DNA from: Chloroflexota bacterium
GTDB lineage: Bacteria; Chloroflexota; Dehalococcoidia; SM23-28-2; RBG-16-64-32
Length of the DNA: 64,000 bases
Assembly: GCA_029262695.1 (NCBI GenBank)
Contig: JAJCYV010000022.1
Coordinates: 49,787-113,786, forward strand
Reading direction: 5' to 3'
Made by a program: the position numbers and the translations under genes. Below, piece after piece: positions 11,622-50,289 of the stretch (positions within the stretch are counted from its first letter, which is position 1; each line of letters opens with the position of its first letter). The notes under the pieces were generated by a model. That model made no database searches. It was not told the origin of the DNA and saw only the letters and a list, made by a program, of their open reading frames with translations.

Positions 11622-12069
11622 GATTGGATTCGAGGCGGCGCGCCGGAAAAAGTGACCGCAAACATGCGTCCTTCCCCTCCTTCGGTAGCCCGGCGGCCTT
11701 AGTCCCTTTCGGGCCCTTAGGTCCGTGGCTTTGCGTCCCGCCCTTTCAGACGGTTTGCCTTTATCGGGAGCGAAAGAGCATCGGCCTCTATCGCTCCGCG
11801 TTTGCTCCTGCTCGATGGCAGGCTGGCGACGGAGCCAGTCTACCATATTGCGATTATCCACAATGTGGAATGCCCCTGCCTAATCAAGGCTAACCCTAGC
11901 GGCTGGCACAGCAGTTGATGGAAAGGTTACAAAACTTGGCACTGGCGCTTAGAATGGGCACCAATCGGAAGGTCGGCGAAGCGGCCGCACCAAACCCGGC
12001 GACGCGTAGCGGTTGCGGTACAGCCTGTCTCAGTGCGGCCAGACGCCACGACGCAGTAAGAGAAATGCC

Positions 12070-15000
12070 ATGAACGAACAGGCTAGCAAACCCCCGGCCG
12101 GCGGTGGCCGGGTCTACCTGAAGCTGCTGGATCATCTTGCCGACAGCGCCTTCCTGGCGAATTCCAGCGGCAGACTCCTCTTCGCCAACGTGGCCACCTG
12201 CCAGAGTCTCGGCTATACGCGAGAGGAGCTTCGCTCGCTGTCCGTTCCAGACATCACCGACGACGGCGAGAGCAAGCTAAGGGAGGCGTTCACGGCTGTT
12301 GCGGCCGGTGAGCCGGTAACGGCTGAGGCCGTGCAGCGCCGGAAGGACGGCACGCCTGTCCCCGTAGAGCTGCGGCTTTCGCCGATTGAAATTGACGGTC
12401 GTCTGTGCCTGCTTGGGCTCGCCAGGGACATCACCAAGCGCAAGCAAGCCGAAGAGCAACTACGCCAGCACAGCGAACGCCTGGAGATACTGTTTGAGTA
12501 TGCGCCGGACGCCTACTATCTGAACGATCTCAACGGCAATTTCGTCGACGGGAATAGAGCTGCCGAAGAGCTGAGTGGATATAGCAGGGAAGAACTCATA
12601 GGGAAGAACTTCCTTGAGGTCGGCGTACTGCCTCAGGACCAGCTGCCGGTGGCAGCCGATCATTTGGCCAGCAGCAAACTTGGAGGGCACAGCGGCCCAC
12701 ACGAACTGATCTTGATCCGGAAGGACGGCACGCAGGTAAGCCTGGAGATAACCACGTACCCGACGACCATCGACGGGCGGCCCCTGGTCCTCGGCATCGC
12801 CCGCGATGTCACCGAGCGCAAGCTGGCGGAGGAAGAGCTGCGAAGGGCCCGCGATGAGCTGGAGTCGCGGGTGACGGAACGGACCGCCGACCTGGCAGCG
12901 GCCAATGAGCGGCTGCGAGAGGAGATCACCGAACGAGAGGAATCCCAGAAGGCGCTCCGGGAGAGCGAAGAGAAGCTCCGCACGCTGGCAGAGACGACGA
13001 CCGCGCTCATTTTCATCTTCCAGGGTCCACACCTGAAATACGCTAACCCGGCGGCGGAAGCCATCAGTGGATACTCCCGGAATGAATGGCAGTCGATGGA
13101 TCTCTGGGATCTCCTGCACCCGGATTTCCAGGACCTCGCGAGAGAGCGGCACGGGGCACGGCAACGGGGCGAAGACGTTCCGGCCCGGCACGAGGTCAAG
13201 ATGCTCACCAAGGACGGCGAGGAGCGGTGGCTGGATTACACCGCCGCGGGCGTTGAGCTTGAGGGAGAGGCCGCGATACTTGGAACGGCGTTCGATATCA
13301 CAGATAGAAAGCGAGCAGAGGAGGCGCTGCAACTATCAGAACAGAGACTGTCGGAGGCGCAGCGAATCGCCCGTGTTGGCAACTGGGACTGGGATATCGT
13401 CGCAGGCGAACTCTGGTGGTCCGACGAAGTCTACCGGATATTTGGCCTGAGCCGAGAGGAGTTCGGCGATACCTACGAGTCGTTCCTCGAATCCGTCCAC
13501 TCCGATGACCGTGACTTAGTACGCACCGCTGTCGACGCCGCCCTCTACGAGCGCAAGCCCTATAGCGTCGAACACCTCATCGTCCTCCCCAACGGCGATC
13601 AGAAGGCAGTGCATGAGCGAGCTGAGGTTACATTCGACGAAGATGGCCGGCCAGTCCGAATGGCCGGGACAGTGCTCGACATCACGGAGCGCAAGCGCGC
13701 GGAGGAGGCGCTGCGGGAGAGCGAGGAGAAGCTGCGATCGATTCTTGAGACGGTACCCGACATCGTAGCGACTGTGGCCGCCGACGGGACGCTGCTTTAC
13801 ACCAACCGCAGAGCGGCGGGGGGTGACGTGGACGAGATCATCGGGACGAGCGTCTTCGATCTGGTCGTGGACGAAGACCGGGACACAGTAAGGAAGGCAT
13901 TTCAACAGGCTGCAGAGACGGGCGAGAGAGCCAGCTACGAGGCCCGAGGGCGAGGCCCTGATGGTACGACTCCATGGTACGCGGTGCGCATCGCACCGCT
14001 GACGAGCGGCGGGGAGGTCGTCGCGGCCACTTTGGTCGCAACCGACATCACGGAGCGCAAGCAGGCCGAGGAGGCTCTGCAGGAGAGCGAGCGAAGGAAA
14101 GAGGCGCTGCTGGCTGCGATGCCAGACCTGATGTTCGTCATTGGCCGGGACGGAACATATCTCGACTACCATGCGCCTTCCTCCGATGAACTCTATGTGT
14201 CTCCCGATGAGTTTCTCGGCAAGACCGTCCGGGAGATCATGCCGAGAGAAGTCGCGGACCGCACTATGGAGAACATTGAGTTTGCTATCGAGAAGCGGAC
14301 GATACGCGCGTTCGAATACCAGCTCACGATTGGCGGTAAGACGTTGGACTTCGAGGCCCGCTACGTGCCCCACGGAGACGATCAGGCCCTTGCGATGGTC
14401 CGTAACATCACCGAGCGCAAGCAGGCGGAGGCCACCATCGAGCGCATGGCTTACCACGACGCGCTGACCGGGTTGCCCAACCGCGAACTGTTGAAGGACC
14501 GGCTTGACATCGCGCTCGCCCAGGCGCGTCGCGGCGGAAACATGGTCGCTGTCATGTACCTCGATCTCGACCGGTTCAAGAACGTCAACGACACGCTGGG
14601 ACATCCTGCGGGAGACAAGCTTCTGCACAGGATCGGTCGCCAACTATCGCGCCTGGTTCGAGATGGCGACACCGTCGCCAGAATCGGTGGTGATGAGTTC
14701 GTCATGCTGCTACCCACGATCGAGGATCCCGAAGACGCGGTCGGTGTGGCAGCCCGAACCCTCAAGCGCCTCAGCAGAAAGCGCACGCTGCTGGGACAGG
14801 AGATCGTCGTGACCGCCAGCATCGGCATTAGCCTGTATCCGCCAGACGGGGACAACGCGGAGGACCTGCTGTCGCACGCTGACACGGCCATGTACCGCGC
14901 CAAGGACCGTGGCAGGAACCAGTACCAGATCTACGATCCCGGCATGACCACCGACATTGAGAAACGGCTTGTCATGGAAGCCGAACTGAGGAGCGCGCTG

Positions 15001-15765
15001 GAGAACGACGAGATCGTGGCGTACTTCCAGCCCCAACTCGACGTTGCGACCGGGCGCCTGCTCGGGGCGGAGGCGCTCGCCCGCTGGCACCACCCCAGTC
15101 GCGGACTTGTGCTTCCCGGCGATTTCATCCAGGTAGCAGAAGAGACGGAGCTATCTCTGCTGCTTACCGAGCAGATGTTGAGATCAGCGGCGGCTCTGCA
15201 TGTTGAAATGAGAAACAAGGGCTTGCCTCCGATGCGGATGGCCGTCAACCTCGGACCCGCCGAACTTTACGAAAGCGCGCTGCCACAAGTTGTCGCAAGG
15301 ATTCTCGCCAAAGCCGGGATGGGGCCGGAGTATCTCCAGGTCGAGATAACTGAGCAGGGGGCGATGCGCGATCCCGATCTCGCGCTTCTTACACTGACTG
15401 ACCTGCGCTCACAGGGAGTGCAGATCGTTGTGGACGACTTCGGCACCGGCCACTCGTCCCTGAACTATCTTCGGCGCTTCCCCGCGAGTGTCGTGAAGGT
15501 GGACCGGTCCTTCATCCGCGACCTCGAAGACGACCCTGAGGATGCGGCGATCGTGTCGGCGATCATATCAATGGCGAAGAGCCTCAACCTGAGCGTCGTC
15601 GCCGAAGGAGTGGAGACGGAGGCGCAGCTCCAGTTTCTGAGAGAAAGGGGCTGCGACGAGTACCAGGGCTATCTGTTCAGCCCGGCCATTCCGGCACCTG
15701 AGTTCGAGGAGCTGCTGAAGACAAGCGCGACGGCTGCAAAGGCAAGCTCAAGAGGCGCTCCGTAG
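12070..15765 (+). CDS. Multi-PAS sensory diguanylate cyclase/phosphodiesterase (PAS x5-6, GGDEF, EAL)
   Basis: There are repeated PAS/PAC blocks, each followed by a conserved DITERK box, with coiled-coil linkers between them. A GGDEF active site (RIGGDEFVMLL) and an EAL domain (EALARWHHP...DDFGTGHSSL) follow. The start is ATG 12070, inside track ORF 12013..15765. Confidence 0.85.
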   Translation: MNEQASKPPAGGGRVYLKLLDHLADSAFLANSSGRLLFANVATCQSLGYTREELRSLSVPDITDDGESKLREAFTAVAAGEPVTAEAVQRRKDGTPVPVELRLSPIEIDGRLCLLGLARDITKRKQAEEQLRQHSERLEILFEYAPDAYYLNDLNGNFVDGNRAAEELSGYSREELIGKNFLEVGVLPQDQLPVAADHLASSKLGGHSGPHELILIRKDGTQVSLEITTYPTTIDGRPLVLGIARDVTERKLAEEELRRARDELESRVTERTADLAAANERLREEITEREESQKALRESEEKLRTLAETTTALIFIFQGPHLKYANPAAEAISGYSRNEWQSMDLWDLLHPDFQDLARERHGARQRGEDVPARHEVKMLTKDGEERWLDYTAAGVELEGEAAILGTAFDITDRKRAEEALQLSEQRLSEAQRIARVGNWDWDIVAGELWWSDEVYRIFGLSREEFGDTYESFLESVHSDDRDLVRTAVDAALYERKPYSVEHLIVLPNGDQKAVHERAEVTFDEDGRPVRMAGTVLDITERKRAEEALRESEEKLRSILETVPDIVATVAADGTLLYTNRRAAGGDVDEIIGTSVFDLVVDEDRDTVRKAFQQAAETGERASYEARGRGPDGTTPWYAVRIAPLTSGGEVVAATLVATDITERKQAEEALQESERRKEALLAAMPDLMFVIGRDGTYLDYHAPSSDELYVSPDEFLGKTVREIMPREVADRTMENIEFAIEKRTIRAFEYQLTIGGKTLDFEARYVPHGDDQALAMVRNITERKQAEATIERMAYHDALTGLPNRELLKDRLDIALAQARRGGNMVAVMYLDLDRFKNVNDTLGHPAGDKLLHRIGRQLSRLVRDGDTVARIGGDEFVMLLPTIEDPEDAVGVAARTLKRLSRKRTLLGQEIVVTASIGISLYPPDGDNAEDLLSHADTAMYRAKDRGRNQYQIYDPGMTTDIEKRLVMEAELRSALENDEIVAYFQPQLDVATGRLLGAEALARWHHPSRGLVLPGDFIQVAEETELSLLLTEQMLRSAAALHVEMRNKGLPPMRMAVNLGPAELYESALPQVVARILAKAGMGPEYLQVEITEQGAMRDPDLALLTLTDLRSQGVQIVVDDFGTGHSSLNYLRRFPASVVKVDRSFIRDLEDDPEDAAIVSAIISMAKSLNLSVVAEGVETEAQLQFLRERGCDEYQGYLFSPAIPAPEFEELLKTSATAAKASSRGAP

Positions 15766-17568: not shown

Positions 17569-18612
17569 CTACGCAGAGCGGGCCCGGACTCGCAGGTACA
17601 GAGACCCGAGTCCAACCACGACAGCCGCGCCGCCAAGGGCAAGAACCAGCATCAGCGCGGTAGACACGCCGCCATCGTCGCCGGGTGCGCCGCCTGTGGT
17701 CGGGACGCTGCCCGGGCTGGCGGTGGGTCCGGGTGTGGCTGTGTCCTGGGCAGCGCCCGGCAGGCTGGTGACGATCCATCCTGAGTCCGCACTTGTGAGG
17801 TGGCCGGTGTCCGTCCAGCCGGTCAGGCCCTCGTCAGCATCCCAGTAAGCCAGGGCGATCTTTGCAGTGCCACCAGCTACGAACTGGGCGTCCTCAATGT
17901 CGCCCGTCTGCAGCGGACGCGACATCTCGAAGGTCCAGGTGCCAGCCTCGCCGATCGTGGCACTCGTGTGGCTCCAGGACCCAGCGAGACTGTTTTCGGC
18001 ACCGGAGGCACTCGCGGTCTTGCCGTCGTCTTCGCGGGTCTCCGGATCAGTGGCGTACTCGTCGTCCATGTTGCAGTCCGGGTAGTTGCCGCTCCCGGCG
18101 TCGCCGCCACCGGACATCGCACCGGCGGCGCAGTCCAGCTCCCAGTGCCAGATGTCCACCATCCCCAGACCGGCCTCGAAGTCGCTATCGCCGGAGCCCA
18201 TGTGGGGGCCGGCAGCCGCGTCGATGAGGAACTGCACGGCGAGAGCCGCCGACATTTTGTGGTCATTGGGAGGGACAACACCATCGAAGTCGTAGTCGTC
18301 CGGCACCTCAACCAACACGTAGATGTTGGTGTCATCGGTAGCGACCTTGAGGGTCACGTCCACCGGGTCAAGCGGGCCGGGTGCGTCCCAGTCAACGCCG
18401 GCGGGGATCTCGAACTGTTTCAGGTTGACCGTGAGGCCGGTGATGGCCGCCCAATCGGCGCTGTTGCCGTCCACGGTGATCGTGGCGTCGGCCGCGTCCA
18501 GGCTCAGGTCTGCCTGGGCGGTGCCGCTGCCGACCATCAGGACCAGCGCAAGGGCCGCGGCGATCACGGCTCCCAGGCCTGCGGACCGAAGCGTACTTGT
18601 CCAGCTACTCAT
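17569..18612 (-). CDS. Secreted DOMON/EB_dh-like (CBM9-like fold) protein, paralog 1. Sec signal peptide and C-terminal TM anchor.
   Basis: Signal peptide (...GSGTAQA/DLSL). An ITVDG-x3-DW start, PHMG, MVDIWHWELDC, PDCNMDDE and GHLTSADSGWI blocks are shared with the two paralogs. C-terminus has a Pro/Thr linker and a hydrophobic anchor. GAGGAGG RBS. Confidence 0.55.
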   Translation of the reverse strand: MSSWTSTLRSAGLGAVIAAALALVLMVGSGTAQADLSLDAADATITVDGNSADWAAITGLTVNLKQFEIPAGVDWDAPGPLDPVDVTLKVATDDTNIYVLVEVPDDYDFDGVVPPNDHKMSAALAVQFLIDAAAGPHMGSGDSDFEAGLGMVDIWHWELDCAAGAMSGGGDAGSGNYPDCNMDDEYATDPETREDDGKTASASGAENSLAGSWSHTSATIGEAGTWTFEMSRPLQTGDIEDAQFVAGGTAKIALAYWDADEGLTGWTDTGHLTSADSGWIVTSLPGAAQDTATPGPTASPGSVPTTGGAPGDDGGVSTALMLVLALGGAAVVVGLGSLYLRVRARSA

Positions 18613-18715
18613 TTTGATTACCTCCTCTTTCGTACTTTTTCATGACGCGGGCAATATTGTGTCGCGTTGCTTATACCCTCCTTCTCCATGGTGGGTCAAC
18701 ATTCGGGGGGAAACT

Positions 18716-19681
18716 CTACGGGAGCCTCACCTCTATCCAGCCGCTTTCGGCACTCTGCAGGTGCCCGGTGTCCGTCCAGCCCTCCAGCGTTTCGTCCGGA
18801 TCGAAGTAGGCAAGCGCCATCAGCGCGGTGCCGCCGCTTTCGAACTGGGCATCCTCAGCGTCACCTGTCTGCAGGGGCCTTGACATCTCGAAAATCCAGA
18901 CGCCGACTGCATCCGGGCCGTCCGCGCTCGCAGTATGCGTCCAGACGCCAACCAGGCTATTCTCTGCATCGGCGTTGGCGGTGTCACCACCTCCATCATC
19001 CTCACGGTCTTCTGGATCAAGCGCGAACTCGTCGTCCAGGTTGCAGTCGGGGTCGTCGCCACTCCCGGGATCGCCCCCACCGGATGCAAGTCCGGCAGCG
19101 CAGTCCAGCTCCCAGTGCCAGATGTCGACCATCCCCAGGCCCAGCTCCAGGTCCTCATCCTCGGCACCCATGTGAGGCCCGGCGGCCGCATCGATGAGGA
19201 ACATCACGGCGAGCGAAGGAGAGAGGTTATGGTCGGCCGGGTCGAAGTCGTAGTCGTCGGGCACCTCCACCAACGCATAGAGGTTCCCACCGTCAGTGGC
19301 CATCTTCAGCGTGACATCGATGTCGTCGAGAGGCCCGGGCTCATCCCAATCCACGCCGGACGGGATCTCTATCTGTTCCATCGGCACGGTGACGCCCTCG
19401 ATATCACTCCAATCCGAACTGTCCCCGTCCACGGTGATCGTCGCTGTCGCGGCGTCGAGCGTGATCTCGTCACCATCACCCGCGTCGGTCGGTGCGGCCG
19501 TGGGAGCATCCGTGGGATCATCCGTGGGGGCATCCGTTGGTGCCGCCGTGGGCTCCGCCGTCGGTGACGCTCCGTCATCGTCGTCGCCGCCGCAGGCCAC
19601 GGCCACAAGCGCCAGCACTGCGAGCGCCGCCAGCAGAACAATCACTGCCTTCGCTCCTCTGCGGGTTAGTAGATTCATCAT
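18716..19681 (-). CDS. Secreted DOMON/EB_dh-like protein, paralog 2. N-terminal signal peptide or possible lipoprotein, with an acidic PT-rich linker.
   Basis: Start MMNLLTRRGAKAVIVLLAALAVLALVAVAC-GGDDDDG after an AAAGGAGA RBS. The track ORF 18716..19912 is over-extended. It has the same conserved blocks as paralogs 1 and 3 (PHMG, MVDIWHWELDCAAG, PDCNLDDE, GHLQSAESGWIEV). Confidence 0.55.
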   Translation of the reverse strand: MMNLLTRRGAKAVIVLLAALAVLALVAVACGGDDDDGASPTAEPTAAPTDAPTDDPTDAPTAAPTDAGDGDEITLDAATATITVDGDSSDWSDIEGVTVPMEQIEIPSGVDWDEPGPLDDIDVTLKMATDGGNLYALVEVPDDYDFDPADHNLSPSLAVMFLIDAAAGPHMGAEDEDLELGLGMVDIWHWELDCAAGLASGGGDPGSGDDPDCNLDDEFALDPEDREDDGGGDTANADAENSLVGVWTHTASADGPDAVGVWIFEMSRPLQTGDAEDAQFESGGTALMALAYFDPDETLEGWTDTGHLQSAESGWIEVRLP

Positions 19682-19748
19682 CTCCGGTCTCCTTTCATTT
19701 CTCCGGCGTGTGTGGCTGGCATCGTCACTCCGTTCAACATCCCTGGGC

Positions 19749-20216
19749 TCAGTCGGAGCCCTCCTGCCCGATAGCCTCCAGGAACGCGAACAGTCGTTCG
19801 GCTTCTTCGTCACTAAGGGTCTCTTCAACAAATGCAGGCATCCCTTTCGGGCCCTTACGCACTTCCTGCAAGAACTCCGAGAGATTGAAGTCGGACGCAT
19901 CAATGTCTCCACCCACCGTCGCGCCCTGGCCCGTCAGGCCGTGGCAGCTCGCGCAGTTGTTTGCGAAGAACAGGATTCGCCCGTCGGTGAGGGGGTCGCC
20001 GGTCGTATGGTCCGGATCAGCGAGGGATAGGCCTTCGAATGATGCGGGCTCGCCAAGCGTGGCGAGTTCGGTCCGGTCGTAGCCCTCGGGTTCGAGGTTG
20101 TGGTGCGTATACGGGCTGCGGGCGATAATCACGCCGATGAGCGTGAACGCGAGGGCACTCATCACGATGGCGCCCATGATTGGGCCCGGCGGCACCGAGC
20201 GTCTAACGACACGCAT
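19749..20216 (-). CDS. Membrane-anchored mono-heme class I c-type cytochrome
   Basis: N-terminal TM helix, a single CASCH heme-binding site, and a downstream GMPAF Met-ligand region. The start codon overlaps the upstream stop. Confidence 0.75.
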   Translation of the reverse strand: MRVVRRSVPPGPIMGAIVMSALAFTLIGVIIARSPYTHHNLEPEGYDRTELATLGEPASFEGLSLADPDHTTGDPLTDGRILFFANNCASCHGLTGQGATVGGDIDASDFNLSEFLQEVRKGPKGMPAFVEETLSDEEAERLFAFLEAIGQEGSD

Positions 20217-21766
20217 CAGTCATCGTCCTCCAGGTGGCCTGGCTCCGAGAGCCTGTCGTCTCTGTCCAGCGAACCGCTCTCTGAGAGCCTGTCGTCCCTA
20301 TCCAGGATGCCGGCGCCAGAGAGCCTCGCTTCTTCGTCCAACCGGCCGGGGCCGCGGAAGTCAACCCTATCAGCCTCCTCGGGGACACCGGTCGCGCGCG
20401 CGATGGCGATGACGCGGACGGCGATAGTGATCAAGACCACCCACACAGTCGTTGCCACGGCGATGATGATCCAGACGCCAAGCCCCGGGATGTCGACTCC
20501 CGCCTCTGACCGGTATATCTGACCCCCTTCCGCAACCACCAGGGACTGCGAAGCGGCGACCGGCTCAGCCGCTTCCGGCAGCAGATACTCGATCACGAGG
20601 TCCTGATCGCCGGCGCGACGTGGCACGAAGTCCATCTCTGCCCGGCCGTCGTCGTCCGTAGTCGCGGCCGCCACCTCGACCATCCCGGTGACGCCCGCGA
20701 AGGTCACCTCACGGAGGATCCGCACTTGCACGCCGGCAACCGGTGACCCGTCCGTCGTGGACGTGAGCGTCACTAGGACGTCTGCCAGATCACCCACGCG
20801 TGGATCGGCCGATACGGTGATCTCTGCTTTCCCGTCAGAGTCACCGCCCGCGGGTGGCGCTATGGTGGGCGTGGGCGAGGTCGCGCCTCCCGGAGTGGGA
20901 GTCGCCGCCGGTGGCTGGGTGGCATCAGGGCCCGGTATCAGCACTTCGATCCAGCCCTCGCCGGCGCTGGTGAGATGTCCTGCGTCAGACCACCCGATGG
21001 CACTCTCGTCGGCGTCGAAGTAAGCGAGGGCGAGGAAGGCGGAGGTATTCTGTGCGAACTGGGCGTCCTCAGGATCGCCGGTCTGCAGCGGACGCGACAG
21101 CTCGAAGATCCAGGCGCCGTCGGCACCGGCACCACCGGCGCGGCCAGTGTGGTCCCAGGCGCCGGTCAGGCTGTTCTCAGCGTTCGGGTTCGCGTCGGGG
21201 CCGCCGCCATCGTCATCGCGTTCCTCAGGTTCGGTACTGAACTCGTCGTCCAGGTTGCAGTCGGGGTCATCGCCGCTGCCAGGGGCGCCTCCTCCGGCGC
21301 TTTCACCGGGGCCGCAGTCGAGTTCCCAGTGCCAGAGGTCAACCATGCCCAGGCTCTGCTCGAAGTCCTGGTCGCCTGAACCCATGTGCGGGCCCGCTGC
21401 CTGCTCGATCCGGAACATGGCGTTGGGCGAGCCCGAGAGTTTGCCGTCGTTGGGATCATAGTCGTAGTCGTCGAAGACTTTGATCAGAAAGTAGATGCGT
21501 TCGCTGTCCGCGGCGGCCTTTACCTCTGCTTGAACCGCGTCCAGGGAATCGTATTCCCAGTCGGAGCCCTGCGGTATCTCGAACTGGGCGAGCGTCAGCG
21601 TCAGACCGTCGATCCCGGCCCAGTCGGAGTCGTCCCCATCGACCGTAATGGTCGCGGCGGCCGCCGGGAGCGAGAGGTCGGCGCGAGCCGGGTCTGCTTC
21701 AGCGCCGAGTGACAGCACGACCGCGGCCAGAGCGACGGCCAGCAGGGAGATGCCCCAGGAGCGCAT
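20216..21766 (-). CDS. Secreted DOMON/EB_dh-like protein, paralog 3. It adds an Ig-like/CarboxypepD_reg-like domain, a TM helix and a repetitive acidic cytoplasmic tail.
   Basis: Signal peptide, the same PHMG / MVDLWHWELDC / PDCNLDDE / GHLTSAGEGWIEV blocks, a beta-sandwich-like segment (VRILREVTFAGVTGMVEVAAATTDDDGRAEM), a TM helix (VWIIIAVATTVWVVLITIAV), and a tail with repeated DRDDRLSE units. ATGA overlap with the NrfD stop. Confidence 0.55.
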   Translation of the reverse strand: MRSWGISLLAVALAAVVLSLGAEADPARADLSLPAAAATITVDGDDSDWAGIDGLTLTLAQFEIPQGSDWEYDSLDAVQAEVKAAADSERIYFLIKVFDDYDYDPNDGKLSGSPNAMFRIEQAAGPHMGSGDQDFEQSLGMVDLWHWELDCGPGESAGGGAPGSGDDPDCNLDDEFSTEPEERDDDGGGPDANPNAENSLTGAWDHTGRAGGAGADGAWIFELSRPLQTGDPEDAQFAQNTSAFLALAYFDADESAIGWSDAGHLTSAGEGWIEVLIPGPDATQPPAATPTPGGATSPTPTIAPPAGGDSDGKAEITVSADPRVGDLADVLVTLTSTTDGSPVAGVQVRILREVTFAGVTGMVEVAAATTDDDGRAEMDFVPRRAGDQDLVIEYLLPEAAEPVAASQSLVVAEGGQIYRSEAGVDIPGLGVWIIIAVATTVWVVLITIAVRVIAIARATGVPEEADRVDFRGPGRLDEEARLSGAGILDRDDRLSESGSLDRDDRLSEPGHLEDDD

Positions 21767-23127
21767 CAGTTCGCACCTCCGGCTGGCTCAGCAGCGGCGC
21801 CGGGCGGGGGCGCGGGAGCGGCAGACGCCAGAGATAGCTCGTAGTCCTCCTCAACCTCCCAGTGCGCCATGATGGGGAAGATCTTGACGAATATCGAGAT
21901 GAGTAACGCGAAGAGGGCGAACCCGGCCGCCATGATGGAGAACTCCACCCAGCTCGGACTGTAGCTGGAGGGTTCGTAGGGCATGAGCGGCACGCGCAGG
22001 CCGGTGACGACGATGAAGTAGCGCTCGACCCACATCCCGGCGTCAACGAAGACGGCCGCAACGAGAATGCCCCAGAAGTTCCGTGTCCACGGTAAAAGAA
22101 TGATGAGCCCCGGCAGGACAAGACCGCCGAGCATATAGAACCAGTAGAAACCGGCGTACTCCTCCCTGAACAGCTGGTTGAAGTGAAACTCCACGCCCTC
22201 TTCCAGCTTGTAGCCGGTCGTCAGGAACTCCGAGATATTGGCGTAGATCATGATCAGAGCGAAGGCTCCCATCATGTAGCCCAGGTAGATGAAGTGCTTC
22301 TCGTGGATGTACTCCTCCAGGTGGTAAATCTTGCGGAGGATCGCCATGACGATAATCAGCGTGGCGATGCCGGAGAAGATCGCCCCTGCCACGAAGAAGG
22401 CGCCGAAGATCGTGCTGTTCCACGGCTCTCGCAGCGTCATGCCGAAGATCCACGAGACGACGGTGTGGACGGAGACGGCGATCGGCAGGATCAGGAGCAT
22501 GGCCACGGTCATGGCGGAGCCCAGGTTCCGCTTCTGAGCGGCGTTGCCCACCCATCCGACTGCGAGGATGCTGTAGAGCCGGAGACGCCAGGCCGAAACG
22601 CGCCCGGCCAGCCTGTCACGGAGAAACGCCATGTCGGGGATCATCGGCAGGAACAGATAGGCGATGCTCCCCGTCAGGTAGGTCGTTACGGCCAGCACGT
22701 CCCAGACGATCGGTGACTGCCAGCGGCCGTAGAGGATGATGTTGAAGAGGCGATCCACCCGGCCCATGTCCACGATGACGAAGATGGCGCCGCACGAGAG
22801 CGCGACCACCGTAATGAATTCCGCCAGGCGGGTTATCGGCGTCCGCCAACGCGCTTGAGTTATGCGCAGTATGGCCGAAATCAACGTGCCGGCGTGACTG
22901 ATGCCGATGAAGAAGACGAACGTGGAGATGTAAAGGCCCCAGGAGATGCGATCGCGCATGTCGGTGACGATGAGGCCATCGTTGAGCTGCCCGTAGAAAG
23001 CGTATACACCCCAGCCGATCACCACCAGGAGAAAGGCGATCCACAGATAGTAGATTCGGCTGGTGTTGAGGAGCGGAGCCGTGATCGTGTGCTCCAGCCG
23101 CTGGCGCCAGGAGCTCATCTCCTCCAC
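21766..23127 (-). CDS. NrfD/PsrC-family polytopic membrane subunit (quinone-interacting)
   Basis: 453 aa with about 10 predicted TM helices and NrfD-like composition. It is translationally coupled to the FeS subunit upstream and the DOMON-like gene downstream. Confidence 0.6.
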   Translation of the reverse strand: MEEMSSWRQRLEHTITAPLLNTSRIYYLWIAFLLVVIGWGVYAFYGQLNDGLIVTDMRDRISWGLYISTFVFFIGISHAGTLISAILRITQARWRTPITRLAEFITVVALSCGAIFVIVDMGRVDRLFNIILYGRWQSPIVWDVLAVTTYLTGSIAYLFLPMIPDMAFLRDRLAGRVSAWRLRLYSILAVGWVGNAAQKRNLGSAMTVAMLLILPIAVSVHTVVSWIFGMTLREPWNSTIFGAFFVAGAIFSGIATLIIVMAILRKIYHLEEYIHEKHFIYLGYMMGAFALIMIYANISEFLTTGYKLEEGVEFHFNQLFREEYAGFYWFYMLGGLVLPGLIILLPWTRNFWGILVAAVFVDAGMWVERYFIVVTGLRVPLMPYEPSSYSPSWVEFSIMAAGFALFALLISIFVKIFPIMAHWEVEEDYELSLASAAPAPPPGAAAEPAGGAN

Positions 23128-24110
23128 GTCTTCGCCCCCTTAACCCGCTCGACCCACGGCCACTCGGTGGGCAAGCGCCCCTCGTCCGCTGTGTCGCGGC
23201 CGACGGCTTCCCCGTGGCCAGGGATGTAGTACACGCGTGGCTTCGTGCCCTTGTCTTCCTTCAGGCGGTAGGCCTGATTCTCGGAGAGGAACCGGGACGC
23301 GGCGACTATCTCCTTGCCGTTCGTGGCGACGTCGTCCTCAAGGTCTCCGTAGTAGATGGCGTCGTTGGGGCAGGCTTGAATGCAGAACGGCAGCGTCCCC
23401 GCACGGACCATGTCCGGGCAGAAGTCGCACTTCATGACAGTGCCCTTCTTTGCAGGCACCTGGTGCTCAGGCGAGTAGTCGGCGAGCAGCGCCTCCGGCG
23501 GGACCGGCGGGTCACCCCAGTTGAAGAAGCGTCGGTCGTAGGGGCAGGCCGCCATGCAGATCCGGCAACCGATGCAGCGGTCCTGGTCGATGAGCACCGT
23601 CCCCTCGGGCGTCGAGAACGTGGCCGCCACGGGGCAGACGTTGACGCACGGCGGGTTCTGGCACTGCTGGCACGGCGTGGGGATGAACTGAGTGCCGCCT
23701 CCCGGCAACTCGTGCTCAAAGATCTGAATCCACTCCATGGGCTCGGGCGCGAAGTGACCTTCGACGCAGGCGGTCGTGCACTGGGGCGGCGTGCCCTGGC
23801 TCTGGCAGCCGTCGCAGGAGCGGAGGTCGATGATCATCGTCCACTGCCGGATGCGGCCGCCGGGCCCCTTGGCAGGCTCTCCTTGCGATTCCACGACGCG
23901 TCCGGCGTCTGACGCCTTCTGCAGGACCGGGGGCAGGAGGATTAGGGGCGCAGCGCCTGCCGCGGCCATGCCGAAGAGTCTCAGCACGCCGCGCCGGCTT
24001 ACCTTCGGCGGCTGGGTCGGCTCCCCGGGCCTGTCGTCTCGGTCGCTTGCGCCTGAGCCGCCATCGTTCTTGCCCATCATCTTCTTCTCCACCTTTAGCT
24101 CACGCTTCAC
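23115..24110 (-). CDS. Tat-exported 4x[4Fe-4S] ferredoxin-type subunit (PsrB/NrfC/DmsB-like). Alternative starts lie at 24080 and 24077.
   Basis: Twin-arginine signal SRRGVLRLFGMAAAGAAP. Four Cys clusters (CDGC...C, CQQCQNPPCVNVCP, CIGCRICMAACP, CDFC...CIQACP). Confidence 0.75.
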   Translation of the reverse strand: MKRELKVEKKMMGKNDGGSGASDRDDRPGEPTQPPKVSRRGVLRLFGMAAAGAAPLILLPPVLQKASDAGRVVESQGEPAKGPGGRIRQWTMIIDLRSCDGCQSQGTPPQCTTACVEGHFAPEPMEWIQIFEHELPGGGTQFIPTPCQQCQNPPCVNVCPVAATFSTPEGTVLIDQDRCIGCRICMAACPYDRRFFNWGDPPVPPEALLADYSPEHQVPAKKGTVMKCDFCPDMVRAGTLPFCIQACPNDAIYYGDLEDDVATNGKEIVAASRFLSENQAYRLKEDKGTKPRVYYIPGHGEAVGRDTADEGRLPTEWPWVERVKGAKTWRR

Positions 24111-26582: not shown

Positions 26583-27317
26583 CTACCACACCCGGATGAC
26601 GTCGGACTCATGAAAGATGGGCCCGACATCGAGGCCGAGAGTGGGGCCAGCGTAAAGGGACGGCGGAACGCTGATGTCCGCCAGGTAAAGCTCTCCCACG
26701 GCTGCCCGCGCCTCAACCTCTCGCAGGCCTTCCTTGGGGAGAGCCAGCGTCATCGTCGCCGTCGCGCGAACGGCAGGCTCGTGGACTGTGCCTGTTGTCG
26801 TGTCGACGCCACTCGGTACGTCAAGCGATAACACAGGAGCCGTCTGTGAGTTGGCGGCGCGGATCAGTGACGCCGTAACGCCTGAAGGAGCACCTCTGAG
26901 GCTGTAGCCGATTAGCGCGTCGACGACGAGATTGCTGTCGGGCAACTCGCCCCCGTCCGCTGCGATGTCAGCCTCGATACCCATTCTCTCGAGTATTGAG
27001 TGCTGATGCCGCGCGACCTCGCCGAGCCGTTGCGAGTCAGCCGTCATCAGTACGCGGACGCCGGCTCCCCAGTTGTGCAACCGACGCGCGCATACGAGGC
27101 CGCCACCGCCGTTTCCTCCGCTTCCGGCGAGTACGAGCACGCGCTGACCGCGCGGATCTCCGCCGAGAAACCGGCTTCGCGCAACGTCCGCGAGGCAGCG
27201 ACCGGCGTTCTCCATCATCTGCAGGAGCGATATCCTGTAGTCCTCGATCATGGCGCGATCCACCTCGCGCATCTGCTGCGTGGAGAGGAACGGTGGTTGG
27301 CTCCGGGCGGGCGGCAT
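26583..27317 (-). CDS. NAD(P)H-hydrate epimerase (YjeF N-terminal domain, Nnr)
   Basis: LVLAGSGGNGGGG glycine-rich motif typical of YjeF_N. 244 aa. Confidence 0.7.
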   Translation of the reverse strand: MPPARSQPPFLSTQQMREVDRAMIEDYRISLLQMMENAGRCLADVARSRFLGGDPRGQRVLVLAGSGGNGGGGLVCARRLHNWGAGVRVLMTADSQRLGEVARHQHSILERMGIEADIAADGGELPDSNLVVDALIGYSLRGAPSGVTASLIRAANSQTAPVLSLDVPSGVDTTTGTVHEPAVRATATMTLALPKEGLREVEARAAVGELYLADISVPPSLYAGPTLGLDVGPIFHESDVIRVW

Positions 27318-27377: not shown

Positions 27378-28067
27378 CTATCCCTGGCCGGCGATCTCCC
27401 TGAGGACGCGCAGGATCTCGGCGGGCTCCATGCGGTACGTGTAGTCCGCGTTTACGTAGCGGCTCCGAATGACGCCCTGCTGATCGACCACGAAGGTTGC
27501 CGGCACTGGAATCCGCCAGCCCGTCTCCGGGTTGGCGTCCGGGAACCCGCCGAACATCTGGTAGCCGGGCTGGAGGTATTCGGGGATCGTGAACGCGATC
27601 TTGTACGCCTCCATGACGGACCCGTCGAGGTCGAACAGAAGGGGAATCGTCGCCTTCTGCTTGTCCATGAGCTTGAGGGCGTTGTCACGCGTCTCCGGGC
27701 CGATGAGGAATACCTTCGCGCCCAGCGCCTGGATCTCTTCGTAGGCTTGCTGCAGGACCTGCAGCTCAAGGTTGCAGTACGGTCACCAATGGCCGCGGTA
27801 GAAGGAGAGGACGGCAGGGCCTTCTTCAAGGACCGCAGATAGCTTAACGGTCGTTCCATCCTTGGCGTCCGCCAATTCGAAATCGGGCGCGCGGTCGCCG
27901 ACATCGACGGCTTTGGCTATGACGGTCGACTCAAGTTCCGCGAACATCCGCTGGTTGAGTTCGACGAGCGCAGGAAAGCGCTGTGTCGCTGCCTCACGCA
28001 GTCCGGCGAGCTGCGACTCTAGATCGGGAACGTCTGCCATGGCAACTACCTCTCCTTGATCCCACAT
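27378..28067 (-). CDS. Peroxiredoxin-like (Prx-like2, AhpC/TSA fold) thiol-disulfide oxidoreductase. It is a candidate selenoprotein with an in-frame TGA (Sec) at 27783-27785 that gives a UxxC motif.
   Basis: Track ORFs 27783..28067 and 27378..27668 are in the same frame and separated only by this TGA. The 38 intervening codons contain no stop. The joined read is ...AVLSFYRGHW-[TGA]-PYCNLELQVL..., and the TGA falls exactly where the first Cys of the thioredoxin-fold W-C-P-x-C motif sits. A stem-loop with a GCAGGUCCUGC core lies about 17 nt downstream on the mRNA. Confidence 0.6.
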
Positions 28068-28135: not shown

Positions 28136-29290
28136 CTACGGCACATACACATCCGCATCCGGGAAGGCCGCGATGTAAGCGAACCAGAACGTGTAACGGC
28201 CGGGCACCGGCTCCAGGACTGCCCCCTGCAGCGGGCCGGCGGCCGCCTGACCGCTGAGGTCCCAGGCCGAACCCGTCTGCTCGTCCCGGTATCGGCCGTC
28301 GTCGTACGAGAACGACAGCCGTTCGCCCTCCGCCATCGCGAGGTAGGCCGCCGCGGTGGGGCCGTCCGCAGTCGAGAAGACGACGATCTCCTCGCCACCG
28401 AGAGAGTCGTTGATGGCCACGTTGCCCAGCGCCCGCGGTGAGTAGGCCCGGCTGCTGCCACCGACCGTCACGCCGAGAACCTCATCGCCCGCCGCCAGCC
28501 GGCCATCGAGCGCCTCTGGAGACACAGGAAAGGCGAAGCGTTCTTCGTTGACACGGTCGCGATAGCCCTGGAATACGTCACGCTCGTACGACCGCGAGAA
28601 CCCGGTATCGCGACTCAAGACCAGCGTGCCCGGGTGCTCCCGCTCCCACTGCGCCCAGGTCGCCGTCGTCGAAGGGAGCGTCGTCAGACGTGAGCCCGTG
28701 AGCGAGCCGACGATCGCCTCTCCGGCCACCTGCCACCAGTAGGAGTTCGTCTGCCGGTCCAGCATCACCAGGTCAGATTCGTACAGCGCGCTGCTGTTCC
28801 CGAACGTTAGTTCCCGCCCGTCGAGCCGCCTGTCGTAGGCGACGGCACTGCGACAGAGCGGGCAGTAGGAGATGAGGACGGGAGTACCGTCCAGCTCATC
28901 GTTCACGATCTCGTGAAAGTTGAGGATCTTGACGGGGAACGCCCAGGCGCCCCCACGGGCGCCGACGTAACCGATCACCAGGTCGTCGTCCTCGAGCCAG
29001 TCACCGCCGGCGGCGTCCTCGTAGACCGGCGCGTCCAGCGGCGGAATCGCATCGACGAGGGAGAGCGCCAGATCCTCCCCGATCTCAGAGAGCGGCACTG
29101 AACCACCGTCAAATGTGTCGAAGTGCACCTCGTCGAGCGGGACGCTGTGCAGCGACAGGTCGACGCCGGCCACGGTGTCCCGGCCGCCCCCGGTAGGGCC
29201 GCTCGGGGCGCCATCACCACTGCCACCGCAGGCCAGCGCGGCCAGGGCGACCCCGACGGCAGCAACCGTGATCGACGTTCTGCTCCTCAT
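28136..29290 (-). CDS. Secreted/lipoprotein DUF3179-family protein
   Basis: Signal peptide with a LAALACGGSG lipobox-like site and a conserved ISYCPLCRSAVAYDRR block. Confidence 0.4.
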   Translation of the reverse strand: MRSRTSITVAAVGVALAALACGGSGDGAPSGPTGGGRDTVAGVDLSLHSVPLDEVHFDTFDGGSVPLSEIGEDLALSLVDAIPPLDAPVYEDAAGGDWLEDDDLVIGYVGARGGAWAFPVKILNFHEIVNDELDGTPVLISYCPLCRSAVAYDRRLDGRELTFGNSSALYESDLVMLDRQTNSYWWQVAGEAIVGSLTGSRLTTLPSTTATWAQWEREHPGTLVLSRDTGFSRSYERDVFQGYRDRVNEERFAFPVSPEALDGRLAAGDEVLGVTVGGSSRAYSPRALGNVAINDSLGGEEIVVFSTADGPTAAAYLAMAEGERLSFSYDDGRYRDEQTGSAWDLSGQAAAGPLQGAVLEPVPGRYTFWFAYIAAFPDADVYVP

Positions 29291-29318: not shown

Positions 29319-30233
29319 TCAGGTTGTCGCCGGGTTTGTCACGAGCCCGCACGTCAGGTGGCCATCGTCATCGACGCACTCTTCCAGGAGCTGCACTCCC
29401 AACCGTTCGCCTTCATCGATCAGGTGGCCAACGTGACCAAAGGACGCCAGTGTATGTTCATGGTCAAGCTGGGGACGGATCACGGTAATCCGTGCCCGGC
29501 CCGAGAAGAGCTGGATATCGCGCTTCACTTGCTGCTGTAGCAGCAACTCCAACGATCGGTAGAGGACCTTGATGATGCTATCTGACTTGAACCCGTCCGG
29601 CGGCTGTGTCAGGTCGATCGCGAGAATGTCGGTGGCGCCGGCGTTCACGGCAGTCTCGAGGTCCATATTCGCCATGAGGCCGCCGTCTACGAGCAGCGCG
29701 CCGCCCGACTCTATGGGACAGAACAGACCGGGTATCGCGGATGATGCGAGTACGGCCCTGGACACCGGACCCTCCTCGAAGACGACCTTCTCTCCTCCGG
29801 TCATGTCGGTGGCAACGACGTGGAGCGGGATCTGCGCGGCCGCGAAATCATCGGCGACCAACGAATCATCGATGAGCTGCTTCAGGAGATCGGTCCGGAA
29901 GATGCAGTTGCGCCGCGTGATGAGGTTGACGGCCAGCCACAGCGGATTCTGCTCGAAGACGCGCGACGCCCGAAGGTCGCGCCAGACGGCTTCCAGTTCG
30001 GCGATGCCCGCCGGGTCTGGCTGGAAGGCGACGAACGCACCGTTGAGAGCGCCCACGCTTGTGCCGACAACCATGGAGGGCCTCAGTCCGGCCCGGAAGA
30101 GCGCCTTGAGAACGCCAACCTGAACGGCCCCCAGAATTCCACCGCCGCTGAGAACCAGCGCCGGTCGGACGTCGCTCGCCAATAGCTGCGGACGGTCATC
30201 GTTAATGACACCGGCCCTTGCTCCACCACCCAT
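29319..30233 (-). CDS. Patatin-like phospholipase
   Basis: Oxyanion GGGxxG (LVLSGGGILGAVQVG) and GTSVG nucleophile elbow (GxSxG), followed by a DGG Asp dyad region (LVDGGLMAN). Confidence 0.8.
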   Translation of the reverse strand: MGGGARAGVINDDRPQLLASDVRPALVLSGGGILGAVQVGVLKALFRAGLRPSMVVGTSVGALNGAFVAFQPDPAGIAELEAVWRDLRASRVFEQNPLWLAVNLITRRNCIFRTDLLKQLIDDSLVADDFAAAQIPLHVVATDMTGGEKVVFEEGPVSRAVLASSAIPGLFCPIESGGALLVDGGLMANMDLETAVNAGATDILAIDLTQPPDGFKSDSIIKVLYRSLELLLQQQVKRDIQLFSGRARITVIRPQLDHEHTLASFGHVGHLIDEGERLGVQLLEECVDDDGHLTCGLVTNPATT

Positions 30234-30251: not shown

Positions 30252-30902
30252 TCAGGCGACCGCTTCGGCGAGCGCTTCCTCCATCTGCTCCAGCAAGATC
30301 AGCCCGTTGTGGACCTGTGTCACGACGCCGTCCGGACTGATGAAAACGCTGACAGGCATCCCGAGCCCGCGATACTCGTCGTACACGGAGTCATCCGGGT
30401 CGATTCCGTTGACGGGAAAGCTCACGCCGGTACCGCCGTCGGAGCGGGTCAGATCCTCCAGGAAGCCACGCGCCCGGCCGAGCGGTTCGGCCCGGTTGAC
30501 GGCGACGACGACCAGGTCGTCTGGATGGTCCGCTTGAAGCTGCTCGATATCCGGCAGTTCGGCCTTGCACGGCCCGCACCACGACGCCCAAAAGGTAACG
30601 TAGACGGCCTGTCCTCGAAGATCGCTCAGACGGTGGCGCGTCCCGTCAAAGTCCGATATCTCGAAGTCCGGAGCGAGCTTACCGGCCTGTGGGCCGACAT
30701 CGAACTGCTCGAAGCCCGGTACAGCAGCCGTGTTGAGGATCAGCGCATCTTCGATCCCCTCGCCGCCGCCCTGGCTGCCGAGCACGCCGACGAACGCAAG
30801 CGCGGCCAGAGCCGAACCGACAACTGCCGACAGGGCGACGAGCGTGGTCAGCCGCCTTCGCAGGTCCTGCACCCACGCCCTCTCGCTCAAACGTTCTGAC
30901 AT
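30252..30902 (-). CDS. TlpA/ResA-family membrane-anchored thiol-disulfide oxidoreductase
   Basis: N-terminal TM helix, and a thioredoxin-fold WCGPC active site within YVTFWASWCGPCKAELP. Confidence 0.8.
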   Translation of the reverse strand: MSERLSERAWVQDLRRRLTTLVALSAVVGSALAALAFVGVLGSQGGGEGIEDALILNTAAVPGFEQFDVGPQAGKLAPDFEISDFDGTRHRLSDLRGQAVYVTFWASWCGPCKAELPDIEQLQADHPDDLVVVAVNRAEPLGRARGFLEDLTRSDGGTGVSFPVNGIDPDDSVYDEYRGLGMPVSVFISPDGVVTQVHNGLILLEQMEEALAEAVA

Positions 30903-30903
30903 G

Positions 30904-31764
30904 CTATACCTCCGTCGATACGTCGCCCAGAAGGCCGAAGTTGAAGAGAGTGTTCAGGTTGATAAGGCTGTCCGTGAAGATGAGGACGCCCACCACGATG
31001 ATCAGGGCGCCGCTCGCGAAGTTGACGTACCCTATGTAGCGCTTGACGTAGTTGTATACGGGCTTGACGGTGCCGTAAGCGGCGCCCATGGCGAGAAACG
31101 GGACCGCCAGACCTGCCGCATAGGCGAAGAGGAGCACCCCGGCCTGGGCGACGGTGCCGCTGGACACAGCCAGCGCAAGAATAGCGCCGAGAGTTGGGCC
31201 GATACAGGGGCTCCAACCGGCAGAGAAGGTGGACCCCACGACGAAAGAGCGGGCGTACCCGATCTTGGCTCCAGAGCCGGCGTCCAGCCGGCGCTCTGCC
31301 TCAAGGAAGGGGATGGTGATTACGCCGGCGAGGTGGAGCCCGAGAATAACGAGTGTGCCGCCGGACACCTTGAAGATGATTTCCTGCTGGTCTCGCAAGA
31401 AGAACCCGATGATGCCCAGCGAGATGCCAAACAGAATGAACACGAGCGAGAAGCCGCTCGTGAAGCTAACCGCATGCAAGAAGGGCGACGGCCGAGCGAC
31501 GGCGGCGACGCTGTTTGATCCAGCCTGTCCGTGACCTGACGTCGCCATTGCCGAAGCCGTGACCAGAGTGCCGGCTCCAGCACCGGCCGCGTCCTGCACC
31601 GGCACCGAAGCGCCAGCTTTGGTCGATGGGCCTTCGAGCGACGCGCCGGTGAGATAGCCCAGGTAGGCAGGGATCAGGGGAAGGATGCAAGGGGAAGCGA
31701 TCGACAGAAGCCCGGCGAAGAAAGCAATGAAGATGCTTATGCCGCCGATCTCTGCGAAGCCCAT
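30904..31764 (-). CDS. ccdA: Cytochrome c-type biogenesis / disulfide-reductant transporter CcdA (DsbD family)
   Basis: Conserved ASPCILPLIPAYLGYLTG and GWSPCIGPTLGAIL Cys motifs in TM helices. The start is the MGFAEIGG Met at 31764 after an AGGAGGAGG RBS. Track ORF 30904..31854 is over-extended. It carries an unusually long Ala/Gly/Ser-rich loop. Confidence 0.75.
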   Translation of the reverse strand: MGFAEIGGISIFIAFFAGLLSIASPCILPLIPAYLGYLTGASLEGPSTKAGASVPVQDAAGAGAGTLVTASAMATSGHGQAGSNSVAAVARPSPFLHAVSFTSGFSLVFILFGISLGIIGFFLRDQQEIIFKVSGGTLVILGLHLAGVITIPFLEAERRLDAGSGAKIGYARSFVVGSTFSAGWSPCIGPTLGAILALAVSSGTVAQAGVLLFAYAAGLAVPFLAMGAAYGTVKPVYNYVKRYIGYVNFASGALIIVVGVLIFTDSLINLNTLFNFGLLGDVSTEV

Positions 31765-31950
31765 TCCCGTTCCTCCTCCTAACCTCAACCTGGCACCGGA
31801 CGACCCGCGCCCCACCTGTGCCTGCTGAGATCCATAATCGGTCGCGCGCATCAACGCCTCATAAACACGGCATTGGGGCCGCCTTAACGACGCTGCCCTG
31901 CGGTGCGAACGCCACTGAGGAGCGGCTATGATACAAAGCTGAGGGCCGAG

Positions 31951-49678: not shown

Positions 49679-50289
49679 GATGGCACTCCTTCGTTGCGTG
49701 TTGCGATGAGGCCGGCAAGCACAGCGGACACGCCGTGTCTCCAGACCGCGGCGATGTCAACGCCCTCCGGGTCCATCGCCTTCATGACGAACAACCCCTC
49801 GAACATCCCCATCAGGGCGGTCGCCACACCGTCCGGTTCTATCTCACCGATGAGGCCCTGGCGCTGAGCGTCGGACAAAAGCGCCGAGATGTGGCCGCGG
49901 GAAGCAGCGTAGAGGTTGGCGACGCGGCCTCGCATCTGCTCGTCGCGCGCCGCGTGAGACAGCATCTCCACAGCACCGCGGCTTAGCGGCAGGAGGTCCC
50001 CCGCGGACGCGAAGGCGGCCTCAGCGTCTCGCGAGAGCGCCTCCAGGGGGTCGGACTCGCGGCTGATCGCCTCCCATCGCTGAAGCAGTTGCGCCGACCA
50101 GACCTCGAAGAGTCCGATAAGGATATCGCGCTTGCCCGCAAAGTGGTGATAGATGGCGCCCTTGGAGAGGCCGGTATGGGCCGCGATGTCGTCGATGGAC
50201 GTCTCGTGGTAGCCGTGCTCCGCGAAGCAGACCATAGCGGCAGCCAGGACCTGGGCGCGGCGGGTTTCTGCGGAAGCGTGTTTGGCCAT
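49675..50289 (-). CDS. TetR-family transcriptional regulator
   Basis: N-terminal HTH FAEHGYHETSIDDIAAHTGLSKGAIYHHFAGK. Confidence 0.85.
   Translation of the reverse strand: MAKHASAETRRAQVLAAAMVCFAEHGYHETSIDDIAAHTGLSKGAIYHHFAGKRDILIGLFEVWSAQLLQRWEAISRESDPLEALSRDAEAAFASAGDLLPLSRGAVEMLSHAARDEQMRGRVANLYAASRGHISALLSDAQRQGLIGEIEPDGVATALMGMFEGLFVMKAMDPEGVDIAAVWRHGVSAVLAGLIATRNEGVPS

Follow-up and report, generated by a model that had tools for sequence, protein, structure and literature searches.

The 64,000-nucleotide stretch analyzed here, hereafter the window, spans positions 49,787 to 113,786 of contig JAJCYV010000022.1 from a Chloroflexota bacterium of the class Dehalococcoidia (assembly GCA_029262695.1). 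On its minus strand lies a gene for a thioredoxin-fold protein of the AhpC/TSA type that is crossed by one in-frame TGA, very probably a selenocysteine (Sec) codon. From position 28067 to a TAG at 27380-27378 this TGA (27785-27783) is the sole internal stop; it sits in the peptide ...VLSFYRGHW-TGA-PYCNLELQVLQQ..., and the 38 codons from the TGA to the ATG (27668) of the downstream open reading frame (ORF) are free of stops. The sequence-only reading had joined the two ORFs listed for this region (27783..28067 and 27378..27668) as pieces of one frame parted by the TGA alone, and the frame is indeed continuous across it. What changes is the start codon, which is likely the ATG at 28040 rather than 28067, because a Shine-Dalgarno-like GGAGAGG precedes it and homologue N termini align to MADVPDLESQL. 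The same reading expected automatic annotation to split the gene; a public protein collection stores the exact gene as two unnamed products of 85 and 96 amino acids (aa), and its relatives are held as C-terminal fragments of 121 to 130 aa. The features of the locus are collected in Table 1.

Table 1. Features of the predicted selenoprotein gene and its neighbors, in window coordinates (CDS, coding sequence; SECIS, selenocysteine insertion sequence)
Feature	Coordinates	Strand	Basis
Predicted selenoprotein CDS, 220 codons + TAG	27378..28040	-	Sequence, PF00578 match, dN/dS, AlphaFold model of Cys orthologue
Predicted Sec codon, residue 86 (in-frame TGA)	27783..27785	-	Aligns with TGC/TGT or TGA in homologues
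Cys89 codon (TGC), resolving partner in the UxxC motif	27774..27776	-	C invariant in homologue alignment
Putative bacterial SECIS hairpin GCUGCA-GGUCC-UGCAGC (GCUGCAGGUCCUGCAGC)	27749..27765	-	Fold, published bacterial SECIS criteria, likeness to fdhF
Shine-Dalgarno-like GGAGAGG, 8 nt upstream of ATG 28040	28049..28055	-	Read from sequence
YjeF_N, NAD(P)HX epimerase-type; downstream neighbor	26583..27317	-	PF03853 E = 9e-44; adjacent or nearby in L001/2, L005, L006, L051, L170, L173
DUF3179 protein, lipoprotein-like signal, CPLC motif; upstream neighbor	28136..29290	-	PF11376 E = 1e-83; syntenic in L001-L003, L051, L154, L173
Patatin-like phospholipase	29319..30233	-	
TlpA-like membrane-anchored thiol:disulfide oxidoreductase, WCGPC	30252..30902	-	Redoxin/AhpC-TSA/Thioredoxin matches, N-terminal hydrophobic anchor, synteny
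CcdA/DsbD-type (DsbD_TM) transmembrane thiol-electron transporter	30904..31854	-	PF02683 E = 1.5e-11, synteny

With Cys placed at the TGA, the full translation matches PF00578 (AhpC-TSA; E = 2e-30, residues 47-193, 105.6 bits against a cut-off of 26) and also the Pfam Redoxin model, and the redox motif of the thioredoxin-fold domain reads Sec86-Pro-Tyr-Cys89 (U-P-Y-C). The proposal that the TGA occupies the first Cys of a CxxC redox motif is borne out by the GHW-TGA-PYC context and by the Sec/Cys pair in the homologue alignment. We modeled a Cys orthologue (P0001, 64% identical) with AlphaFold, using 19 homologues. The model is a thioredoxin fold (predicted local distance difference test score, 95.6) in which the CxxC lies at the N terminus of helix 88-99, after strand 77-81, and it includes a 45-residue N-terminal extension with two additional, amphipathic helices. 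Foldseek searches with this model returned Bcp/PrxQ peroxiredoxins and ResA as the best structures (E of ∼1e-13 to 1e-11, template modeling score of 0.83 to 0.91 on the target), and the nearest PDB sequences are 2ywn, 2cx3, and ResA. In the sequence alignment with 2ywn, Cys89 falls on the peroxidatic Cys and Sec86 on the catalytic Thr of the peroxiredoxin TxxC, and therefore the site is a CxxC-type redox center, as in ResA, and not a canonical peroxiredoxin site. The N terminus (MADVPDLESQLAGLREAATQRF...) has no hydrophobic segment, and inspection of the 220-residue sequence found neither a signal peptide nor a membrane segment, which suggests that the protein is probably soluble and cytoplasmic and sets it apart from ResA and TlpA.

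Assignment to any named subfamily of these relatives was rejected. The PxxxTxxC site of canonical peroxiredoxins is absent (W-U-P-Y-C stands in its place), and the NCBIfam models for PrxU (score of 30 against a cut-off of 270), BCP (35 against 140), and AhpC fall far short of their cut-offs. The SelL-related redox protein model (NF040769; 42.2 bits against 120) and the ResA/TlpA/DsbE class (ResA, 47.5 against 170; DsbE, 29 against 123; no anchor or signal peptide) were likewise set aside, and none of the NCBIfam equivalog or subfamily models reached its cut-off.

A protein search returned two classes of relatives: full-length proteins of ∼210 to 256 aa with Cys at the site (up to 64% identity) and many proteins of 121 to 130 aa (53 to 87% identity) that cover the C-terminal 55 to 59% of the product and start just past the stop (MELQVLQQ...). 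The sequence-only reading had asked whether Cys or Sec occupies this column in homologues, and the underlying loci hold both. TGA stands at the aligned codon in L001-L007, from Chloroflexota/Dehalococcoidia metagenome-assembled genomes (MAGs), and TGC or TGT in 37 other loci from Cyanobacteria, Proteobacteria, Bacteroidota, Actinomycetota, and others. An acidobacterial locus of 28% identity (L042, ∼3118 on the plus strand) has TGA in the context ADW-TGA-PYCK and, 21 nt downstream, a hairpin of 7 bp (GCAGCUC-GUC-GAGCUGC); it is probably an independent Sec form. Six more relatives (L166-L171; 53 to 71% identity), called as proteins of 122 to 128 aa, carry TGA at the identical codon, each preceded by an upstream ORF of 85 to 88 aa, and L154, which is 96% identical to the window gene, carries it as well. 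In Chloroflexota/Dehalococcoidia MAGs and on metagenome contigs, every one of the 13 related genes examined keeps the TGA; their identities of 53 to 96% mean that they are not redundant copies of a single assembly.

A metagenome scan with the pattern GG-N-CA-N-TGG-TGA-CC-N-TAY-TGY-AA gave at least 120 loci; they come from soil, peat, and marine samples and group into several clades. Of the 128 pattern matches listed (loci plus the window), ∼100 have frames of ∼85 to 130 codons before the TGA and ∼130 codons after it; the rest mostly have one flank shortened, often at a contig end, and L140 has only ∼15 codons on each side. More distant metagenome genes with the TGA number more than 100 among the matches listed. 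Neither the alignment of TGA with Cys nor its conservation in diverged relatives is anywhere near what chance would give.

This conservation bears first on the possibility that the gene is a pseudogene, in which a TGC-to-TGA nonsense mutation inactivated a normal gene of the CxxC Prx-like type and left the two ORFs to decay. Gene callers do split the gene, the change would take a single mutation, and Sec machinery was not found within the window. However, both halves evolve under purifying selection: against the 13 relatives, the ratio of nonsynonymous to synonymous substitution rates (dN/dS) is 0.14 to 0.36 upstream and 0.12 to 0.41 downstream of the TGA, with dS running from 0.13 to saturation, and neither half contains a frameshift or an extra stop. 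The TGA has stayed invariant although synonymous sites are saturated; among 53 invariant columns with degenerate residues in 14 clade sequences, a single codon is kept in only four, of which the TGA is one. Together with its retention in the 13 clade genes and in the more distant set, this makes decay a very improbable account. Still less probable is an error of sequencing or assembly at one base of a TGC or TGT codon; single-base errors do occur, but independent NCBI, ENA, JGI, and Logan assemblies agree on the TGA, L154 included.

The two ORFs might instead encode two functional polypeptides, with termination at the TGA and downstream reinitiation yielding an 85-aa N-terminal and a ∼96- to 130-aa C-terminal protein, and start codons are in fact called soon after the TGA in relatives, giving the MELQVLQQ... 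products. In the window, however, the first in-frame start lies 38 codons past the TGA, at the loss of part of the fold. The break would also cut the thioredoxin-fold domain between the strand at 77-81 and the active-site helix, removing the first redox residue, and the full-length Cys homologues are single chains; we give this arrangement a probability close to nil. The genetic code has not been reassigned, since 11 of the 24 Pfam-supported genes in the window end in TGA. Given the conservation of the TGA, the selection on both sides of it, and these ordinary TGA stops, the pseudogene, sequencing-error, and split-gene accounts are in practice excluded.

The closest Cys form, L172 (567-1223, encoding P0001), is 64 to 67% identical to the window gene and is nested by identity within the Sec clade (67%, between L168 and L170). 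Elsewhere among the Cys forms, L013 and L016 (a Betaproteobacteria MAG and a Rhodospirillaceae MAG) each have two tandem paralogues ∼700 bp apart.

A different question is whether the UGA is recoded to something other than Sec, either to Cys through a selC*-type tRNA-Cys(UCA) and a SelB-like factor or by low-level near-cognate read-through, at what would then be a CxxC or WxxC site. Systems with tRNA-Cys(UCA) exist in some bacteria (PMC5389517), L172 indicates that Cys is tolerated at the site in a gene that keeps the downstream hairpin described below, and selenium incorporation in Prx-like proteins is itself a prediction. The known selC* cases, however, come from Deltaproteobacteria and not from Chloroflexota, in which canonical tRNA-Sec is reported (PMC5389517), and the selenoproteomes predicted for Dehalococcoidia MAGs are very large, with up to 46 to 49 genes, placing these MAGs among the most selenoprotein-rich bacteria (PMC13326102). 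On a 2.2-kb metagenome contig (L046), a canonical tRNA-SeC (822-917, minus strand) immediately precedes, in the same orientation, a Sec-form member of the family (∼803-138); it is the only tRNA-Sec among ∼1 Mb of fetched loci. Moreover, keeping a costly UGA merely for Cys is less parsimonious than using TGC. We therefore consider recoding to anything other than Sec improbable.

Downstream of the UGA, the mRNA can form the hairpin GCUGCA-GGUCC-UGCAGC, a putative bacterial SECIS element. Its stem begins 17 nt and its apical loop 23 to 24 nt past the UGA, its folding energy is -9.8 kcal/mol, and it pairs either as 6 bp plus a closing G-C around GUC (G-GUC-C) or alternatively as 7 bp with the triloop GUC. 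The published bacterial consensus comprises an apical loop of 3 to 9 nt whose first two positions include a G, typically N1-G-[G/U]-N-N2 with N1 and N2 paired, an upper stem of at least 4 bp, a distance of 16 to 37 nt between UGA and loop, and a free energy of -7.5 kcal/mol or lower (PMC13188914); the window hairpin lies within all of these limits. The sequence-only reading had placed a stem-loop ∼17 nt downstream of the UGA, which is where the stem at 27765-27749 starts, and had likened its core to the apex of the Escherichia coli fdhF SECIS. This likeness is real (UGCAGGUCUGCA in fdhF against UGCAGGUCCUGCA in the window): both elements lie within a CDS, and an apex of UGCA-GGUC-UGCA in fdhF corresponds to UGCA-GGUCC-UGCA here, with the GGU loop motif in common. 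A 45-nt fdhF segment was found in 5,419 E. coli genomes under fdhF, is 100% identical in the listed matches, and has at least 99% identity in 5,413 of 5,420 matching records. The two elements differ in that the fdhF loop begins 18 nt past the UGA and the window loop 23 nt, and in that the window hairpin has one additional loop nucleotide, no evident bulged U in the upper stem, and a different, weak lower stem; the host proteins are unrelated.

Codon and pairing patterns within the clade argue for selection at the RNA level. The codons that make up the stem (GAG CUG CAR ... NUG CAG C) are invariant in 11 clade sequences, whereas other conserved Leu positions use three to five codons, and in L166 and L170 the closing pair has changed from G-C to A-U through two synonymous, compensatory substitutions (CAG...CUG to CAA...UUG). 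In L007, L169, and L171, which have Val in place of Leu93, the usual hairpin is missing and an alternative, ACCUUGA-GGU-UCAAGGU, occurs two codons upstream with the same A-GGU-U loop, 17 nt past the UGA; the SECIS element has apparently been relocated within the CDS in this subclade. The equivalent hairpin in larger sister clades displays U-A to C-G and G-U to A-U covariation, with Met, Ala, and Val codons covarying with whichever Leu codon (CUA, CUG, or UUG) is used, and 84% of cells are paired against 27 to 55% for slid partners. Among distant Cys forms, 2 of 37 pass a simplified SECIS filter, and no hairpin is positionally conserved. An Rfam scan of the window matched no SECIS family, which we do not count against the element because bacterial SECIS elements are too variable.

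Several observations nonetheless weigh against a Sec codon decoded with the help of this hairpin. In the window, which has a GC content of 65%, 156 of 1,755 TGA triplets (8.9%) pass the simplified SECIS filter, and thus the hairpin taken alone is weak evidence and statistically unremarkable. The 81-nt region folds no better than shuffled sequences (z = +0.98); since folding of a whole region is uninformative in GC-rich coding sequence, a positional test on the SECIS consensus was used instead. The nearest Cys form, L172, retains GCUGCA-GGGCG-UGCAGC, so the peptide L-Q-x-L/V-Q, written with preferred CUG and CAG codons, may by itself give rise to some of the stem. The simplest reading of L172 is a recent Sec-to-Cys replacement that carries a relic hairpin. 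Confinement of the hairpin to Sec forms, tried as a clean discriminator, is true of the distant Cys forms but fails at L172, and its presence is therefore counted as supporting evidence only. A tRNA scan of the 64-kb window and Pfam searches of 20 large ORFs in it found no selA, selB, selD, or tRNA-Sec, the window containing no tRNA genes of any kind. Nor is there a second selenoprotein gene in the window, where among 163 long TGA-joined frames only the one studied here has a credible redox context. Finally, no member of the Prx-like family has been experimentally shown to contain selenium, and reviews from 2022 and 2026 describe such proteins as "predicted with high confidence"; the UxxC family is predicted, without biochemical characterization (PMC2398784, PMC1794560, PMC9312934, PMC13188914).

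Weighing both sides, we consider it very probable that the region is one genuine Sec-encoding gene rather than two fragments. The proposal of a selenoprotein candidate with a SECIS-like hairpin is upheld by the Sec/Cys pair, the conserved TGA, the purifying selection on both sides of it, and a hairpin that conforms to the bacterial consensus. What probability remains lies mostly with recoding to something other than Sec or with a lineage that has lost the machinery.

The window gene belongs to an already described bacterial selenoprotein family and represents no new mechanism or protein family. Prx-like proteins with a UxxC motif are an established predicted selenoprotein family (PMC2398784, PMC1794560, PMC13188914), defined operationally as a pfam00578 domain with Sec in UxxC (PMC9312934; PMC2398784, Table 2), and the window gene falls under this definition. 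Members are known from Geobacter, Syntrophus, Desulfotalea, and others (PMC1794560) and are abundant in the Global Ocean Sampling (GOS) metagenomes, with 225 Sec forms and 2,740 Cys homologues (PMC2398784). The window gene resembles this family (UxxC/UxxU, "Prx-like 1" of GOS; reference WP_010940744.1 from Geobacter sulfurreducens) in its AhpC/TSA domain, its Sec in the first position of UxxC, the Cys found there in many homologues, and the SECIS hairpin inside the CDS just past the UGA. It differs in its Chloroflexota/Dehalococcoidia-type lineage, in the 45-residue two-helix N-terminal extension, and in its conserved neighbors CcdA, TlpA, DUF3179, and YjeF_N, and its assignment is by the domain and motif definition. 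There is also a likeness to cd02970 (PRX_like2) and to SelL of aquatic eukaryotes, which share the W-C/U-P-x-C motif in an AhpC/TSA fold, and the 2022 and 2026 reviews name a cd02970 peroxiredoxin-like UxxS selenoprotein form as well. For Cys homologues of the window gene, the NCBI name is "peroxiredoxin-like family protein," and one entry is called "AhpC/Tsa family protein, selenocysteine-containing." Unlike UxxS or UxxU forms, however, the window motif is UxxC.

On the reading that we favor, the UGA at codon 86 would be recoded to Sec during translation of the 220-residue product, with Sec-tRNA(Sec) delivered by SelB bound to the hairpin 17 to 33 nt downstream inside the CDS. Within the CxxC motif, the Sec would be the N-terminal residue and the nucleophile, at a position filled by Thr in true peroxiredoxins, and the protein would be expected to cycle between selenol/thiol and selenenylsulfide states. 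Relative to the Cys homologues, it may have a lower pKa and exchange faster, and its role may be that of a thiol/disulfide (or hydroperoxide) reductase.

The main value of this reading is correct annotation. The window gene and dozens of its relatives are stored in databases as meaningless fragments, here the 85- and 96-aa pieces and elsewhere the 121- to 130-aa pieces named "redoxin" or "peroxiredoxin," and this mis-splitting hides a selenoprotein and leads to an underestimate of selenium use in Chloroflexota/Dehalococcoidia. The clade also provides a well-sampled case of Sec/Cys interchange, in which a Cys form within the Sec clade retains a SECIS-like hairpin and one subclade has its SECIS element shifted two codons upstream.

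On the minus strand, the genes run in the order CcdA, TlpA-like, patatin, DUF3179, selenoprotein, and YjeF_N. YjeF_N is the most widely conserved neighbor of the Prx-like gene, and L001-L003 and L051 share with the window the set formed by CcdA, TlpA, DUF3179, YjeF_N, and the split Prx-like gene. A Cys form from a lineage of 47 to 52% identity (L173) stands among DUF3179, redoxin, DsbD_TM, glutaredoxin, and YjeF_N genes, and the CcdA-TlpA-DUF3179 context is absent from L166-L169. The periplasmic thiol-redox setting proposed from the letters therefore stands for the neighbors, with CcdA and TlpA present, but not for the Prx-like protein itself, given its probable cytoplasmic location. A functional tie between the Prx-like gene and an extracytoplasmic thiol-reducing module is possible because the cluster recurs in the window clade and in the Cys lineage, even though it is missing in L166-L169. 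More specifically, and in our view unlikely, the Sec protein might be a dedicated cytoplasmic reductant that feeds electrons to the CcdA-TlpA-DUF3179 module, where it could stand in for thioredoxin or for the glutaredoxin that is encoded next to the Cys form of L173; extracytoplasmic thiol reduction in these Chloroflexota would then be selenium dependent.

The composition of the cluster also varies. The patatin-like phospholipase gene between TlpA and DUF3179 is present in the window and L051 but not in L001-L003. The DUF3179 protein of the window is 40% identical to its counterparts in L001-L003, against 87 to 89% for the flanking CcdA, TlpA, and YjeF_N, which suggests a replacement or a divergent paralogue.

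Two further features lie elsewhere in the window. At 17569-24110 on the minus strand are genes for a TAT-signal 4Fe-4S protein, an NrfD-type membrane subunit, and three consecutive EB_dh (ethylbenzene-dehydrogenase-like) heme-domain proteins, with no molybdopterin catalytic subunit visible within the window. A c-di-GMP-I riboswitch (RF01051; 11681-11769, minus strand; 82 bits, E = 1e-14), the sole Rfam match in the window, adjoins a gene for a 1,250-aa PAS-GGDEF-EAL protein (12013-15765, plus strand).

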